Positions 1 to 45,409 of a DNA stretch of 45,492 nucleotides are shown here, in pieces. Source of the stretch: an uncultured Lachnospiraceae bacterium. GTDB lineage: Bacteria > Bacillota > Clostridia > Lachnospirales > Lachnospiraceae. The DNA is taken from the NCBI GenBank assembly GCA_905193085.1, contig CAJJNI010000001.1, forward strand, positions 1-45,492. The letters run 5' to 3'. Made by a program: the position numbers and the translations under genes. Under the pieces are notes generated by a model. It ran no database searches and was not told the origin of the DNA. It saw only the letters and a list, made by a program, of their open reading frames with translations. Positions within the stretch are counted from its first letter, which is position 1. Each line of letters starts with the position of its first letter.

Positions 1-54
1 ACCCACCTATGAGCAAGCTCATGTGGGTTTAGACCTTTTGACCCTGGCATCATA
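1..54 (+). repeat. Left copy of a perfect 54-bp direct repeat, cut by the window edge; identical to 14897..14950
   Basis: Base-by-base comparison. ACCCACCTATGAGCAAGCTCATGTGGGTTTAGACCTTTTGACCCTGGCATCATA occurs at both sites, and identity stops at the same base (55 vs 14951). It contains the hairpin ACCCAC-CT-ATGAGC / GCTCAT-GTGGGT. Confidence 0.9.
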
Positions 55-13500: not shown

Positions 13501-14724
13501 GCGGGTATGAAGTTTGATAATGATAAGCTCAGGCTTATATACAATGCCAAAGAACAGTGTCCGGAAATTGTATTAAAGGATTCAGAGGGAAATGTTATTT
13601 CTTCGGATAAATACAGTGTTGAAATTACATCTGAATCAGCAGTTTCAACAGAAGATGGTTATACATTTACAGTAAGCGGAAATGGTGTAGATGCTGTTGG
13701 AAGCCAGTCTGGAAAATGGAGTATAGAATATCTTTCTACAGATGCAGAAGCAATAGCCGAAGGCACAAAAAAGACTGACAGTGAATGGTTTAACTCAGAT
13801 GTCAAAATTAAAGCACCAACAGGCTATTTAATTGCAAACAGCAATGGCGCTGATGCTGTCTGGACAGATTATCTTGAACAGGATAGACGTAGTGCAGCAA
13901 TTGTTGTAAGTGAAGATGGAAGCACTTATATAACATATTATCTTAAAAATATTTCAACAGGCGGAATCACAGATGCAAAATCTGTTTTAATTAAGAAAGA
14001 TTCATCTGTTACAACATTTGAAGTAAAAACTGCTACAGGAGAAGCAGCAGGTCTTGCGTCAGATGATGACAGTGTCAGAGTAACTTTCTTTGCAGAAGAT
14101 TTACTCAGCGGTATTGATAATGTTAAGTATTCTCTTGATGGTAAAGACGAAGTGAGTGTTGTAAGTGGAGACAGTATACTTATTACAGCACCGGGAGTAC
14201 ATGTGTTGACTGCAACAGCAAGTGATAAGGCAGGAAATATTGCTTCAAGTCAGATACAATTTACAATTTCAGAGAAACCGGACGAGACACCAAACCCAGG
14301 TGAAACACCAAGCCCAGGCGAGACACCAAACCCAGGTGAAACAGAGAAACCAGGCGAAACACCAAACCCAGGTGAAACAGAGAAACCAGGCGAAACACCA
14401 AACCCAGGTGAAACAGAGAAACCAGGCGAAACACCAAACCCAGGTGAGACACCAAGCCCAAGTGAAACACCGAAGCCGAGTGAAACTCCAACTCCAAGTG
14501 AAACACCAACCCCAGCTACTCTGGCGGGAGATGTTGACTGTAATAATAAGGTTGATTTAAATGATGCCATAATCGTATTAAAACTTGCATTAGGTATACC
14601 TGTTGAAGTAACAGAACAGGGTAGGGTAAATGCAGATTATGACGAGAATGGAAAGATAAATCTCAGTGATGCTCAATATACGCTCAAAGCAGCTTTGGGA
14701 ATTAAAGTTAATTTATCAAAGTAG
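10591..14724 (+). CDS. Very large secreted multidomain protein with C-terminal type-I-like dockerin
   Basis: Signal peptide (KKLLAAALSAAMLSMG...VSA/EE). Beta-helix-like G/D/I-rich repeats in residues 90-330. Two CxxC-rich clusters, beta-sandwich and Ig-like segments, and a PGETPN/PGETEK linker. Duplicated Ca-binding dockerin segments GDVDCNNKVDLNDAIIVLKLALGI and NADYDENGKINLSDAQYTLKAALGI. TTG start 8 nt after AGGAGG. Confidence 0.85.
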   Translation: MRKEKNVKNRAMRRKMLKKSGKKLLAAALSAAMLSMGIYPAGFPVNVSAEEAVAQVADAVAYKAKVDISKLSPINGVITYDITEDGNYYFEGSNNFNESYIPTSIIVAPGVKAGIYFDGVDIENYDGEIAGCGGSMYIEGTTPVYISEYAQVSLHTLNKSTIKLADNASAIVVSKNAYCEINDDLELDVETDCYSTGIDVAGTFEMNGGILYIEGDGGSVGIGVCDIYATEDYSDSNIIINDGTLDIYTVNAPAIGVYAGYESSADKKYNFGNIEIHGSQIVANTTGGVSTIGVRDYDYSKVYSECNGIIIDGGNLTLEQNIWRGDGNKPAVYPGKEVTDGAVVIAGGNIYNTVSDLYDESLSSEIKIKDRFGGNDVSRKVLTLSEQTEREIINITSCDADGNSYYYGNNDMKTDKEGKLYTYLSDGMTTVQVALSDRSIMEGTVSGDAAELSLIEDKSNVPVFSKSHYSFNYNDELTIDTPTVGADCDISYSYAEKKTPDAAPQDNTQWTKLSSLSDVKSLKTGAYWLKASSSDAQAGGVTYRAADTIVSVNVKSCNNHMCDNWVVNEENDAVETAVCSICGETVYRTHDYSDKTGVCKNCKYKCRHTSLKYEYQTEKSHEIVCRACGYSESVEHNWQENLGTVKEAGYTFAYDEESSSWISDTSCIDSSTAKTVWIFDMEQEGTVSFEWGVSSEENYDYLNVFLDEDSVYEQKIIDKKSGNESSGYITGEAVTPELTAGQHMLTAYYVKDSGTREGLDKAYIKFSSDFKYSEVKGNTNTSNSGFEYDEERQRWTCNGYQEDNDGNNSKKIGLTITCEEDCKLPFHIGLPQCGEVYMSSNSLERSLNSNDEMLWINFNKGNNNLFFEWYWEPEDAEAASNEAFYIEYIPAASHICVDCGYLDDHEYSSECDEDCNICGQLRTPSETHKYSSDCDTVCNDCGYQRKVQAEHQFGADGKADKCDNCGVLNIAGMKFDNDKLRLIYNAKEQCPEIVLKDSEGNVISSDKYSVEITSESAVSTEDGYTFTVSGNGVDAVGSQSGKWSIEYLSTDAEAIAEGTKKTDSEWFNSDVKIKAPTGYLIANSNGADAVWTDYLEQDRRSAAIVVSEDGSTYITYYLKNISTGGITDAKSVLIKKDSSVTTFEVKTATGEAAGLASDDDSVRVTFFAEDLLSGIDNVKYSLDGKDEVSVVSGDSILITAPGVHVLTATASDKAGNIASSQIQFTISEKPDETPNPGETPSPGETPNPGETEKPGETPNPGETEKPGETPNPGETEKPGETPNPGETPSPSETPKPSETPTPSETPTPATLAGDVDCNNKVDLNDAIIVLKLALGIPVEVTEQGRVNADYDENGKINLSDAQYTLKAALGIKVNLSK
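14284..14513 (+). repeat. In-frame tandem repeat encoding the Pro/Thr/Glu linker
   Basis: Three perfect 36-bp units (14332..14367, 14368..14403, 14404..14439: CCAGGTGAAACAGAGAAACCAGGCGAAACACCAAAC) sit inside a degenerate 18-bp periodicity. Confidence 0.9.
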
Positions 14725-14778
14725 TTTTAAAATTTAATATAATATTATATAAAGATGTCTGGGGCAAAAGTCCCCAAT

Positions 14779-14950
14779 TATGATGCCTACGGATTGCTCC
14801 GCACTATGTGCTCCCGCACCTCTACCCAATATTCGCATATCGTGGGATTAACATCCCACTTTTATGCTCATATCGGGGCGGGTCACAAAGTCTTTCACCC
14901 ACCTATGAGCAAGCTCATGTGGGTTTAGACCTTTTGACCCTGGCATCATA
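14779..14950 (+). ncRNA. Candidate structured element of about 172 nt: 6S-like rod-shaped sRNA or MITE-like repeat; identity unresolved
   Basis: Clearly GC-richer than its flanks. TATGATGCC (14779-87) pairs with GGCATCATA (14942-50). CCCGC (14813-17) pairs with GCGGG (14878-82). GCATA (14835-39) pairs with TATGC (14863-67). Apical hairpin GTGGGAT-TAAC-ATCCCAC (14842-59). A 28-nt side hairpin lies at 14897-14924 in the 3' strand of a large internal loop. The last 54 nt are repeated at 1..54. Confidence 0.35.
14897..14950 (+). repeat. Right copy of the 54-bp perfect direct repeat
   Basis: Identical to 1..54. Confidence 0.9.
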
Positions 14951-14964
14951 TAAAATCTAAATGT

Positions 14965-15000
14965 ATACACCAGCCTGTGTTTATATGGCTGGTGTATTTA
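14965..15000 (+). terminator. Rho-independent terminator-like hairpin downstream of the dockerin gene and structured element
   Basis: Perfect 11-bp stem ATACACCAGCC (14965-75) / GGCTGGTGTAT (14987-97), 11-nt loop, followed by TTTA. It lies inside the N-terminus of the tracked ORF 14961.., arguing against that start. Confidence 0.6.
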
Positions 15001-31375: not shown

Positions 31376-31578
31376 AAAATTATCCTCCCTTGTAATTTAC
31401 AAATATGTATAATTTTAACATATATGACTGTTAAAAACAAGAATATTGTGTTTTTGTGTGTATCATGTTAGACTAAATATATCGTGTATAGATGACAGTG
31501 GCATAAGGTCTAAATCCACAGATGCCTGTGCATGTATGGTTGAATGATTATGTATTGGAACAGGACGGAAAAAATTTT

Positions 31579-32289
31579 ATGTACTTAAAGGTTGAAAATA
31601 TAAGTAAAAAATACGGAAGAAAAAGTGTTTTGGAAAAAGTTGGTTTTGAAGCCGGGGAGGGTGAGTGTTTAGGTATTCTCGGCGCAAATGGTTGTGGCAA
31701 ATCTACGCTTTTATCAATACTGGCAGGAGTTCTAAAGGCTGATGAAGGAAGTTTTTTTGTAGATGGTGAGAATGTTTTCAGTAAAACATCGCCCTCGGAT
31801 AATGTTGTAGGTTATGTTCCGCAGCAGCCGCCTCTTATGGAAGAGTTATCAGCAAAAGATAATTTAAAATTATGGTATTGCAATTCTGTGCTTGATATGA
31901 AAAAAGAATTAAACAGTGGAATCCTTGCGATGCTTGGTATCGATGAATTTTTAAATGTCAGAGTTTCAAAAATGTCGGGTGGAATGAAGAAGCGGTTAAG
32001 TATAGGTTGTGCGGTTGCGAATAATCCACATATTTTGATTCTTGATGAGCCCGGAGCTGCGCTTGATTTGGTTTGCAAAGAGCGCATTTACAGTTATCTT
32101 AAAGATTTTAAATCAAAAGGTGGAATAGTTTTAATTTCTACACATGAAGAACATGAGATAAATTTGTGCAGCAGACATTATATGCTAAAAAACAAAAAGC
32201 TGACCCGGTTTGAGTATGATGGAAATATACACAGGCTTGTTGGCTGTCTGGGTGCAACTGATGATTTAAAAACTGTAAAGGAACAATAG
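31579..32289 (+). CDS. ABC transporter ATP-binding protein (ABC-2 type)
   Basis: Walker A GANGCGKST, signature MSGGMKKRLSI and Walker B ILILDEP. The ATG at 31579 (MYLKVENISKKYG) is preferred to the tracked 31522. Confidence 0.9.
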   Translation: MYLKVENISKKYGRKSVLEKVGFEAGEGECLGILGANGCGKSTLLSILAGVLKADEGSFFVDGENVFSKTSPSDNVVGYVPQQPPLMEELSAKDNLKLWYCNSVLDMKKELNSGILAMLGIDEFLNVRVSKMSGGMKKRLSIGCAVANNPHILILDEPGAALDLVCKERIYSYLKDFKSKGGIVLISTHEEHEINLCSRHYMLKNKKLTRFEYDGNIHRLVGCLGATDDLKTVKEQ

Positions 32290-43282: not shown

Positions 43283-45409
43283 TTATAATGAAATAATTCC
43301 TAAGGCTGCTTTTAATATAAGCTGTACATCTGATAAGTCAATTTTGCCATTGCCATCAATATCTGCTGCATCAATCTGCTGCTCTGTTGGTTCTACAATC
43401 ATCAAAGCACATTTCAAAGATAACTGTGCATCAGATAAATCAGTTTTTCCATCAAAGTTAATGTCACCTTTAACAGAAGGTGTTGGAGTATCAGTAATTG
43501 TTGGTGTAACCGTAGCCACTGGAGTATTAGTAGGAGTAACAGTCGGAGTGTCAGTAATTTCTGGAGTATTAGCAGGAGCCGAAGTCGGAGTCGGAGTGGT
43601 GGAAATTACAGGACTCGGACTGGCTGTTAATATCGGAGAAATTGTAGCCGCCGGTGTTTTGGCAGGTGGCATAGTCGGTGTCGCTGTAGCGGCAGCCGTA
43701 GCAGTCGGGGCAGCTGTAGCAGTTGGAGCAGCTGTGGCAGTCGGAGCAACTGTAGCGGTTGGAGCAGCCGATGGAGCAGCTGTAGCAGTCGGAGCAGCCG
43801 ATGGAGCAACTGTAGCGGTTGGAGCAGCCGATGGAGCAACTGTAGCAGTCGGGGCAGCTGTAGCAGTTGGAGCAGCCGATGGAGCAACTGTGGCCGATGG
43901 AGCAGCTGTAGCAGTCGGAGCAACTGTGGCCGATGGAGCAGCCGATGGGGTAACTGTAGCAGTTGGAGCAGCCGACGGAGCAGATGTAACTGTAGCGGTA
44001 GGAGCAGCTGTAGCAGTCGGAGTAGCTGTAGCAGTTGGAGTTGCCGATGGAGCAACTGTAGCCGCTGGCAGTGTGTAAGTGTATTTTGTTCCCTGACCGC
44101 TTGGTGATGAGCTTAAATTATATGTAAGTATATTGTCATTTATTCTTAAACCGTAAATGTTAAGTGACAAGCTGGCATTACAGATTGTTTTGACTTCAGC
44201 TGAAGCCGGTTCATATGAGTAAATTGTTGATGTGTTATTAAAATATAATTTTCCGTCATATACATCAAGTCCGCTGCCGCATATAGCATAGTAAGATGAA
44301 CTGTTGTCTGCATACCATTTTCCTGTATTATAAATGGTTGAAATTGAGTTGCCATCAATAGTTGATGAATAAATGTATGATGTTGAATCGTTGCTGTCGA
44401 AAGCTCCATAGTACCATTGGCCATTAATATAATTAAATGGAGTTGTAATACCCTTAGTGAGCCAGTAATAGTTGTCGTATGTAGTATCAGTACATGTATA
44501 AAGACTGGTCCAGTCGTGATGTGTGTTTGATGACGAACTGCTTGCGGCAGAAATCTGGGAATCACTTAATAACATATAATTGTGGTAAGCGAGAGAAAAA
44601 CGGTCGCTTACAGGGTCATCCCATGTTATGTCAACATGATACCATTTGCCATTTATTTTAACAACATTCCAAATGTGGTTCATGCTGTCACTCTGTGCGA
44701 CAGAAACATCAATACCCAGCTGTTCCATTAGTGCGCAGAAAAGAAGGGTATAAGACTGGCATACACCCGTTTTCTGTTTAAGAAAATTGTAAACATCATG
44801 TATTACATATGTAGTATCATATTCGAAATTCTGGGCAATATAATCGTGTATGTAGACAACTTTTTCTAAATCTGACCATGAACTGTCCACAGAATCAATA
44901 ATTGCCTGAATTTCTGAATTATAAAAATCACGCTGTGAAGTCAGAGTTGAGCCACTGCTTGAATAGTTTGGCATCAATGTTCCGATATATGTTGTACCGT
45001 TTGAGCTTACAGGGGAATAGCTGTAAGAGTATGCTACATAAAAAAGTTCAGGTGATGTGTTAATGATGTTTGTTAATATTTCCTTAAGCTCAGATGCTGA
45101 GATTTTGTAAGCTGAAATATCTATTTTGTCCTGAACATTGTATAATCCTGAATAAACAGCTTCTTCCACGGTGGAACTTGAAGATGCTAAATTTCCTTTT
45201 ATGGAATTAACCGGAGTTAAATGTTTGTATGAATTTCCGTAGTCTTCTGTTAATACAGGAAAATCTCCATAACTGTACAATTCAAGTGAATCAGAATATG
45301 TAGATGCCATGTTATTCTGTGCATATTGAGTGCCGGAAAACAGACTGCCGGCAAGAGTAATTGATAAAATAGAGCTTAAAACAAGATTTTTAATTTTAAT
45401 TGTAATCAA
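43283..45409 (-). CDS. Paralogous secreted transglutaminase-like protein with a long Ala/Pro/Thr linker and C-terminal dockerin
   Basis: GVCQSYTLLF and NHIWNVVKINGKWYHVDITWDDP. An APTATA/VAPSA linker of about 200 aa. Dockerin GDINFDGKTDLSDAQLSLKCAL ... DIDGNGKIDLSDVQLILKAALGI. Confidence 0.8.
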   Translation of the reverse strand: MITIKIKNLVLSSILSITLAGSLFSGTQYAQNNMASTYSDSLELYSYGDFPVLTEDYGNSYKHLTPVNSIKGNLASSSSTVEEAVYSGLYNVQDKIDISAYKISASELKEILTNIINTSPELFYVAYSYSYSPVSSNGTTYIGTLMPNYSSSGSTLTSQRDFYNSEIQAIIDSVDSSWSDLEKVVYIHDYIAQNFEYDTTYVIHDVYNFLKQKTGVCQSYTLLFCALMEQLGIDVSVAQSDSMNHIWNVVKINGKWYHVDITWDDPVSDRFSLAYHNYMLLSDSQISAASSSSSNTHHDWTSLYTCTDTTYDNYYWLTKGITTPFNYINGQWYYGAFDSNDSTSYIYSSTIDGNSISTIYNTGKWYADNSSSYYAICGSGLDVYDGKLYFNNTSTIYSYEPASAEVKTICNASLSLNIYGLRINDNILTYNLSSSPSGQGTKYTYTLPAATVAPSATPTATATPTATAAPTATVTSAPSAAPTATVTPSAAPSATVAPTATAAPSATVAPSAAPTATAAPTATVAPSAAPTATVAPSAAPTATAAPSAAPTATVAPTATAAPTATAAPTATAAATATPTMPPAKTPAATISPILTASPSPVISTTPTPTSAPANTPEITDTPTVTPTNTPVATVTPTITDTPTPSVKGDINFDGKTDLSDAQLSLKCALMIVEPTEQQIDAADIDGNGKIDLSDVQLILKAALGIISL
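43627..44068 (-). repeat. Low-complexity, imperfect tandem repeats encoding the Ala/Pro/Thr/Ser/Val linker
   Basis: Reiterated GCAGC(C/T)G(A/T)(T/A)GGAGCA(A/G)CTGTAGC-type units. All three forward and reverse frames are open here, which produces spurious ORFs. Confidence 0.85.

Follow-up and report, generated by a model that had tools for sequence, protein, structure and literature searches.

The contig analysed here, a 45,492-nt stretch of DNA from an uncultured Lachnospiraceae bacterium (CAJJNI010000001.1, positions 1 to 45,492; hereafter the window), contains at positions 14754-14947 a structured segment that is very probably one copy of a family of miniature inverted-repeat transposable elements (MITEs) distributed among Lachnospiraceae and related gut and rumen Clostridia. 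What the Rfam database lists as the Clostridiales-1 RNA is the inner part of these elements. The object itself is already catalogued there; what appears to be new, within the literature searched, is that an entry classed as a small RNA (sRNA) gene is a transposable element. Its members are small and non-coding, have terminal inverted repeats (TIRs), occupy multiple unrelated loci between target-site duplications that are specific to each copy, and are polymorphic for presence or absence, with intact empty sites. The autonomous partner apart, this combination of TIRs, copy-specific duplications, unrelated flanks and empty sites argues for a MITE.

When the whole window was scanned with the Rfam models, a single match was obtained, to RF01699 (Clostridiales-1 RNA) on the minus strand at 14781-14948. 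The match spans model positions 1-166 of 166 with a score of 140.1 bits, relative to a gathering score of 48 (E-values of 3e-34 and 2.5e-32); for comparison copies the scores are 99-157 bits. The GC content of the patch exceeds that of its surroundings (0.49 versus 0.31-0.35), as the first-pass annotation of this DNA had observed. That annotation had also folded the plus strand by hand into an irregular rod with a central bubble. The stems it listed do exist, and folding is strong on both strands, but the architecture is that of a four-way junction, and the minus strand is favored by energy as well as by G·U pairs. Relative to shuffled sequences, the segment 14779-14950 folds at -89.3 kcal/mol (z -10.6) on the minus strand and at -71.6 kcal/mol (z -7.4) on the plus strand, and the fold of the whole element is 18 kcal/mol better on the Rfam sense strand than on the opposite one. 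The consensus fold comprises a 7-bp closing stem, P1 (UGAUGCC/GGCAUCA), a four-way junction and three hairpin arms, and the junction was recovered in the Rfam alignment, in minus-strand minimum-free-energy folds and by RNAalifold from 71 copies. A pairing between TGCTCATA and TATGAGCA, earlier proposed as an alternative conformer, does not hold up across copies: covariation in the apical stem of arm A (AU to UA, 16 sequences) has no counterpart in arm B, whose AUGAGCAU is invariant.

The Rfam model stops short of the right terminal repeat and its hairpin, and the conserved unit is accordingly larger than the model, extending from GATGCC to GACATC over 14754-14947. Its parts in the window are as follows.

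14754-14947, minus strand: complete 194-bp non-autonomous element (copy 2), GATGCC...GACATC in RNA sense, its extent given by where similarity starts and stops among about 100 copies and by the flanking direct repeats.
14747-14753, strandless: first copy of the target-site duplication ATATAAA, abutting the element terminus and identical to 14948-14954.
14948-14954, strandless: second copy of the duplication, identical to 14747-14753.
14931-14947, minus strand: left TIR, GATGCCAGGGTCAAAAG, an exact match to the family TIR consensus.
14754-14770, plus strand: right TIR, reading inward as GATGTCTGGGGCAAAAG, with 2 mismatches to the consensus and 14 of 18 positions in common with the left TIR.
14759-14777, minus strand: terminal GC hairpin, in which the right TIR pairs with its internal complement, found in a terminator scan and separate from the rest when folded.
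14781-14948, minus strand: structured core, the 140.1-bit RF01699 match, with P1 and a four-way junction with three arms, characterized by covariation.

The left TIR also contributes to the fold, as the 5′ strand of P1 and as the base of arm A. In RNA sense the terminal GC hairpin is followed by ACAUCUUUAU, which gives it the look of an intrinsic terminator in the terminator scan; it is conserved in a six-sequence alignment, where it exhibits compensatory changes, and is present in most copies, with variants of 182-184 bp lacking it. The 194-bp element has no coding capacity, its only open reading frames (ORFs) being 50-57 codons long and overlapping the fold, and single-nucleotide indels occur between copies.

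Relatives were sought with a core pattern in a collection of species-representative genomes, yielding at least 118 matches, about 105 of which were confirmed by an iterated nhmmer profile; the statistics on ends, flanks and orientation given below cover the copies among the matches listed. Nearly all confirmed copies belong to Lachnospiraceae and related gut or rumen Clostridia, and a single genome can carry several (at least seven in CAVJMX01, at least six in CAAGSD01 and at least four in CAVFMZ01). The CAVJMX01 copies lie at loci L145, L147, L166, L185, L191, L199 and L214. This genome is labelled ‘Bacteroidales bacterium H4’, a label that looks doubtful because its copies, and the sequence neighboring the one at L166, resemble loci derived from Clostridia. 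A looser pattern, GCGGGAG-N9-CGGAGCA, was dropped, as its matches (L001-L120) arose almost entirely by chance. The core pattern gave only 5 matches in 2.9 million viral contigs and the element none among plasmids, and a phage or plasmid origin was rejected on these grounds; 15 unannotated faecal ‘phage’ contigs carry the element.

A first alignment that included faecal contigs showed conservation running 3′ past P1 and through the GC hairpin to GACATC, with none upstream of P1. Among the aligned copies, similarity starts sharply at GAT(G/A)CC, preceded by sequence that is unrelated even inside one genome, and on the other side most copies continue through the hairpin to (G/A)ACATC. These boundaries define a pair of inverted repeats of approximately 17 bp, GATGCCAGGGTCAAAAG on the left and GATGTCGGGGTCAAAAG on the right. 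Across the family the ends read GATGCCAGGGTCAAAAGG (left) and GATGTCGGGGTCAAAAGC (right, reverse complement), are identical at 13-15 of 18 positions and begin GATGYCRGGGTCAAAAG. They also co-vary, in that the GATTACAGTG (GATTAC) subfamily has a matching GTG change at its right end.

The 7-8 nt directly before GATGCC recur directly after GACATC, and their sequence differs from copy to copy (for example ATAGTGAT, ATCTTAAT, TTACAAA and ATTCAGAT). Exact duplications of 7 or 8 nt flank 36 of the 51 copies with a recognizable right end, and 44 of the 51 when one mismatch is allowed; in a control in which left and right flanks were paired across different copies, exact repeats occurred in 40 of 2550 pairings (1.6%). 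The duplications are 7, 8 and in one case 12 nt long, at AT-rich targets, with ATwnwwAT as the consensus of the duplicated octamer. About 16 copies instead stop at P1. Five of these have repeats matching at 6 or more of 7 nt at that boundary, versus 2% in controls, and one (L189) has the exact repeat ATAAATA there. From these sequences, the internal GGCATC that forms the 3′ strand of P1 seems able to serve a minority of copies as an alternative end. Three interchangeable GATGYC ends sit around the P1 stem.

To search for empty sites, the flanks of each copy were joined around a single duplication and compared by BLAST with all fetched loci. At locus L123 the filled site reads GGTATACT-ATATTTT-element-ATATTTT-GAATG, and in a region of L166 that is about 85% identical the empty site reads GGTATACT-ATATTTT-GGATG, with a single ATATTTT. 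Similarly, L158 is filled and bears the 12-nt duplication, and L178 is empty with a single ATTACATTATTT. Reciprocal insertions were also seen, the partner genome being without them or retaining only a 38-nt remnant. Core identity within a genome reaches a mean of 98.3% (seven copies, some of them 100% identical), versus a mean of 81% between genomes. Many short-read metagenome contigs that carry a downstream glycosyltransferase (GT8) gene end inside the element; in L313, L314, L317, L318 and L320 the contig stops about 105 nt upstream of the GT8 gene, at a point corresponding to window position ~14925.

The window holds two copies and one fragment in its 45 kb, together with a hairpin of the host sequence.

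1-51, minus strand: copy 1, cut by the window start, so that only the left TIR (35-51) and arm A lie inside, with 100% identity to 14897-14947.
52-58, strandless: target-site duplication of copy 1, ATAATAA, its partner ATAATAT lying outside the window, with 6 of 7 positions in agreement.
31491-31548, plus strand: decayed third-copy fragment, left end and arm A (GATGACAGTGGCATAAGGTCTAAATCCAC...), nhmmer E 5e-5, profile positions 6-64.
14965-14997, plus strand: host hairpin outside the element, with an 11-bp stem, -18.6 kcal/mol and z -4.4, followed by UUUAC.

The second copy recognized in the first-pass annotation is confirmed, window 1-54 being identical to 14897-14950. In other assemblies of the same species (L301-L310) copy 1 is present whole, at 194 bp; it is 96.4% identical to copy 2, scores 142 bits with RF01699 and has flanks of its own, distinct from those of copy 2. 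The 11-bp hairpin at 14965-14997, previously listed with the structured patch, exists as described but belongs to the host sequence, outside the region conserved between copies.

Copies 1 and 2 lie 14.9 kb apart in the same orientation. The segment between them encodes a Tad/Flp-type pilus cluster (T2SSE, T2SSF, a Flp1-like protein and prepilin peptidases) and a 1377-aa dockerin-like protein, and this direct-repeat layout could allow the segment to be deleted or moved through recombination. The third-copy fragment overlaps the annotated start of ORF 31522-32289, which looks like an ABC-transporter ATPase from its first residues. Elsewhere in the window, 18-nt tandem repeats within coding regions (14234-14521 and 43613-44122) encode Pro/Thr/Glu-rich linkers, for instance just before the dockerin-like module.

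Several variant forms were encountered among the relatives. Mini derivatives occur at L195 3738-3765, L130 6683-6716, L162 7462-7543, L331, L381 and L366; some amount to the two terminal repeats joined back to back (GATGTCGGGGTCAAAATCCCCCGACATC), and others keep arm A along with the ends, in about 73-88 nt. The L130 mini site recurs in many IMG/VR contigs. Internally deleted forms exist besides these TIR-only minis. In L122, L140 and L176 (243-bp elements), and also in L129, L189, L228 and L174, the third arm is longer by an inserted stretch of about 49 nt (…GCTATGTGCCAGTGGCACATGTCTAGCACGGACCGAAGCGGAGCGGAGA…) that resembles an additional hairpin or partial duplication. At L138 4271-4779, four partial copies lie in tandem, with profile positions ~85-174 occurring three times after a 5′ part, an arrangement that suggests local rearrangement or slippage within an element.

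The fold of the core has been maintained by compensatory change. RNAalifold applied to 71 distinct cores recovered P1 and the three arms, with double-sided changes in 26 of 43 pairs. Paired cells amount to 96.8% versus 90.2% in shuffles, with 0 of 500 shuffles attaining 96.8%; cells with double-sided changes number 195 versus 46 in shuffles, and slid-register controls are only 27-47% paired. Among the paired cells G·U occurs 105 times and A·C 19 times, and this excess of G·U over A·C indicates that the constraint on the fold acts on one strand, the Rfam sense strand. Such strand-specific compensation suggests that a single-stranded form matters to the element. Substitutions private to one copy, on the other hand, fall at 0.60 per paired column and 0.65 per unpaired column, and 23 of 40 break a pair. 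This small sample suggests that resident copies decay neutrally and that the compensatory pattern is carried by lineages that are still spreading, so that the fold would matter to the element and not, locus by locus, to the host. The rule set out in the first-pass annotation, under which many TA insertions, no transcript ends in the region and a lack of compensatory changes would make the patch a MITE and not an RNA gene, is therefore too simple for a family that is mobile and yet displays strong strand-specific covariation.

Most copies are intergenic (101 of 105), and with respect to co-directional neighbors 34 are in sense and 30 in antisense orientation. Clustering of 562 neighboring ORFs revealed no family that recurs nearby; the largest cluster, ABC ATPases, is represented at 7 of 116 loci, and the neighbors are housekeeping genes. 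In the window the element lies between the stop codon of the upstream gene (14724), whose C-terminus matches Dockerin_1 weakly (E 2e-4, just below the cut-off), and the hairpin at 14965-14997, which is probably the native terminator of that gene. Because of this position, the plus strand, antisense to the Rfam model, is most likely the strand transcribed at the window copy. A promoter scan of the window minus strand found no promoter-like site upstream of the element. The sole promoter-like site on that strand is an outward-facing hybrid combining a -35-like TTGCCC in the right TIR (14762-14767) with a -10-like TATTAT in the flank, at 17-nt spacing and with 9 of 12 matches, which does not exceed chance expectation. 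Most copies carry, in both TIRs, an outward-facing, -35-like TTGACC hexamer 8 nt from the terminus, and hybrid promoters reading from element ends into neighboring genes are conceivable on the basis of these motifs. Since the terminator-like hairpin is followed in sense by the U-rich duplication, any upstream promoter would give a discrete RNA of about 200 nt.

Copies without the right end show a different arrangement. Of 15 such copies, 10 stand in sense orientation 17-81 nt upstream of a ribosome-binding site (RBS) and start codon, and 1 is antisense, whereas in the same comparison 14 hairpin-bearing copies are in sense and 20 in antisense. The copies ending at P1, with neither right TIR nor hairpin, include L184, L175, L143, L237, L139/L204, L183, L189, L228 and L179. 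The genes downstream of core-only copies are unrelated housekeeping genes (MoaC, IlvD, ArgJ, PGK, ABC binding proteins and cardiolipin synthase), and a riboswitch-like regulon was rejected for that reason. The orientation bias is compatible with selection against a terminator-like hairpin in front of genes, or with occasional use of the core as a 5′ structure. Two diverged, lower-scoring copies (L202 3251-3398 and L220 5117-5220) are the immediate downstream neighbors of groEL, in the sense orientation, in two Lachnospiraceae genomes from the rumen, and may represent an old insertion kept at an orthologous site.

These data can be set against other accounts of the patch. The first-pass annotation had first put forward a 6S-like RNA (ssrS), a rod that mimics open promoter DNA and sequesters RNA polymerase. 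Only the earlier hand fold of the plus strand speaks for it, and its likeness to 6S RNA is one of length and high predicted stability only; a scan of the region at E<=10 gave no 6S model and no other credible family, against the full-length RF01699 match, and the fold is branched rather than rod-like in an element that, unlike ssrS, is multi-copy and mobile. We regard this reading as refuted, with a negligible chance of being right. Its stated alternative, an IS630/Tc1-type MITE bounded by P1 (TGATGCC...GGCATCA) with a TA duplication, was correct as to the kind of element and incorrect as to type and boundaries. The presence of TA on both sides of P1 in the window copy, and the minority of the family that ends at the internal GGCATC, would agree with those ends. 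The element, however, reaches 27 nt further, to 14754, and the TA is part of the ATATAAA duplication: in RNA sense, the TTTATAT before GATGCC recurs at 7 of 7 positions after GACATC but at only 2 of 7 after GGCATC. Target duplications across the family are 7-8 bp, AT-rich and variable in sequence, and even core-only copies with flank repeats have 7-nt repeats and not TA. Because the duplications are of this length and are not TA, the IS630/Tc1 type is excluded, and for the window copy we give this version almost no credence. Scarcely more probable is spread through an RNA intermediate, in the manner of short interspersed nuclear elements. The variation in duplication length (7, 8 and once 12 nt) at AT-rich targets and the strand-specific structural constraint in propagating lineages would suit retroposition, but the precise, co-varying inverted-repeat ends and the TIR-only mini elements would not; there is neither a 3′ A-tract nor a 5′-truncation pattern, and the neighboring ORFs and the promoter scan revealed no associated reverse transcriptase and no internal promoter.

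Two further accounts give the RNA a larger role. An ordinary trans-acting sRNA gene, multiplied by duplication, transcribed from its own minus-strand promoter and ending at the GC hairpin, would explain the strong covariation with its strand asymmetry, the terminator-like hairpin directly 3′ of P1 and the extended -10-like boxes present a few nucleotides upstream in some copies, and would make the repeats and inverted ends incidental. The conserved unit nevertheless starts at the first base of P1, with unrelated sequence upstream, so that no promoter travels with it, and none was seen upstream on the window minus strand; orientation relative to neighbors is random, private mutations break pairs freely, and the copy-specific duplications, TIRs and empty sites point to transposition. 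We therefore judge such a gene improbable. Somewhat less improbable, though still unlikely, is that the host has exapted the element as a cis-acting part of its transcripts (a 5′-untranslated-region stabilizer, an insulator or a terminator), with mobility as its origin only. This would be in keeping with the sense bias of hairpin-less copies upstream of an RBS and ATG, with the terminator-like hairpin, and with the persistence of older copies downstream of groEL. Against it, the downstream genes are functionally unrelated, full-length copies have no orientation bias, singleton mutations are not depleted in stems, and the window copy is antisense, in a 3′ region.

Several observations weigh against the classification as a MITE family or limit its reach. 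Neither an autonomous element nor a transposase bearing these ends turned up among 116 genomic loci, 120 metagenome loci, viral contigs and plasmids. The pattern used in the genome scan was biased to one subfamily, and the counts are drawn from among the matches listed. The duplication flanking copy 1 is imperfect, the singleton analysis comprised 79 substitutions only, and strong strand-specific covariation is unexpected of a plain MITE, making an RNA role on top of mobility likely. Every retrieved assembly of this species has both window copies, and the exact 27-mer expected of an empty site for copy 2 was not found in the metagenome collection; presence/absence polymorphism was found at L123/L166 and L158/L178, and mobility is accordingly established for the family and not for the two window insertions.

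The search for a partner took several routes. Solo TIR sites in the fetched loci had no transposase, nor did end-only nhmmer matches, which are copies with truncations or internal deletions. Viral contigs scanned for the TIR gave chance matches, one recurrent phage mini-site and one site beside a serine recombinase that was judged unrelated. No partner emerged from BLAST of the bare ends against plasmids or from TIR pairs 0.3-5 kb apart, and the recurrent neighbor clusters contained no transposase, the top eight named being all housekeeping genes. Duplications of 8-9 bp with ends beginning GA or GG would fit IS256-like elements, and 8-bp duplications would also fit ISL3 and IS1595. A scan of metagenomes for an exact left TIR followed by a continuation other than that of the MITE did reveal a second repeat family, not recognized by Rfam, which has the exact 17-bp terminus GATGCCAGGGTCAAAAG, a different interior and five different left flanks.

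L328 (last 523 nt), L333, L411, L343 5289-5500 and L360 566-780, metagenome contigs: second repeat.

Three of these contigs are 96% identical up to their ends, which lie 320-520 nt inside the repeat, and contigs breaking at such points are the pattern that a longer multi-copy element would produce. In L328 the last 90 nt contain an RBS and the start of an ORF (LYRVYKIDISPVHS...). The second repeat may therefore be the left end of an autonomous partner. A likeness of the 29-residue ORF start to TnpB-type N-termini was considered and dropped, as it had no support in Pfam, NCBIfam, the protein database or viral contigs.

The MITE reading suggests a scheme in which the element is mobilized in trans by a putative DDE-type transposase that would recognize the GATGYC...GGGTCAAAAG ends and make staggered cuts of 7-8 bp. 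In the window, the insertion would have separated the stop codon of the upstream dockerin-like gene from the terminator hairpin belonging to it. Because private mutations are free to break pairs, the fold would be maintained in propagating lineages and not in each resident copy. What then matters to the life cycle or persistence of the element would be a single-stranded form, most probably a sense transcript that stops at the terminal hairpin. More speculatively, the four-way junction might be a working part of transposition, with the sense transcript or a DNA strand being bound by the transposase or a host factor and being needed for, or controlling, mobilization. Although this would account for the strand-specific compensation, the decay of resident copies and the presence of three GATGYC ends around P1, we consider it a long shot. 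Were it so, lineages that lose the fold would stop spreading, and there would be non-autonomous DNA transposons selected for RNA structure.

The Clostridiales-1 motif was introduced as a likely non-coding RNA, neither cis-regulatory nor a switch, with function unknown (Weinberg et al., 2010; PMC2864571); that description carries no remark on repeats or mobility for this motif, although other motifs are flagged there as repeat-associated. In the literature searched, nothing links RF01699 or Clostridiales-1 to mobility, and other papers naming it add nothing on function. The window sequence shares with the Rfam family a full-length, high-scoring match, the four-stem fold and an origin in Clostridiales of the human gut, and differs in that the motif is here enclosed in a larger unit that has TIRs and target duplications.

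The nearest functional analogue appears to be bcr1 of the Bacillus cereus group, a transcribed non-coding repeat, interspersed in the genome and about 155 bp long (Okstad, 2004; Klevan, 2007; Kristoffersen, 2011; reviewed in PMC3184786). Like the present family, bcr1 occurs in Firmicutes; it is flanked by short direct repeats, has a genomic distribution that is not conserved, and retains a cruciform-like fold at the RNA level through compensatory changes (PMC3184786). It has no sequence relationship to the Clostridiales-1 family and differs in having 5-bp direct repeats and two stem-loops, in contrast to 7-8-bp duplications, 17-bp TIRs, a four-way junction and GATGYC ends that are interchangeable; transcription is established for bcr1, and the Clostridiales-1 family was studied here as DNA. 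Classical MITEs such as Correia/NEMIS of Neisseria, ERIC of enterobacteria and RUP of pneumococcus are, according to the same review, also small, non-coding, multi-copy, intergenic and foldable, with TIRs and duplications, and sometimes have promoter or terminator activity; ERIC-type elements carry a 5′-TA-3′ motif at both termini (PMC3184786). The Clostridiales-1 family differs from this group in its 7-8-bp duplications and in a branched interior with extensive covariation. Correia/NEMIS and RUP are likewise TA-terminal, and all three elements, ERIC included, fold as simple long hairpins.

Clostridiales-1 has been an orphan ‘sRNA gene’ in Rfam since 2010, is very common in human gut metagenomes and now figures in metagenome studies that relate it to clinical variables. 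If the motif is indeed part of a transposable element, then its abundance would reflect the copy number of selfish DNA and not the expression of a regulatory RNA, and annotation pipelines would be labelling MITE copies as sRNA genes. The element is also a source of contig breaks in gut metagenome assemblies and provides polymorphic insertion markers for strain tracking in Lachnospiraceae. It is, besides, a clean case in which to ask why a DNA transposon keeps a branched, strand-specific fold.

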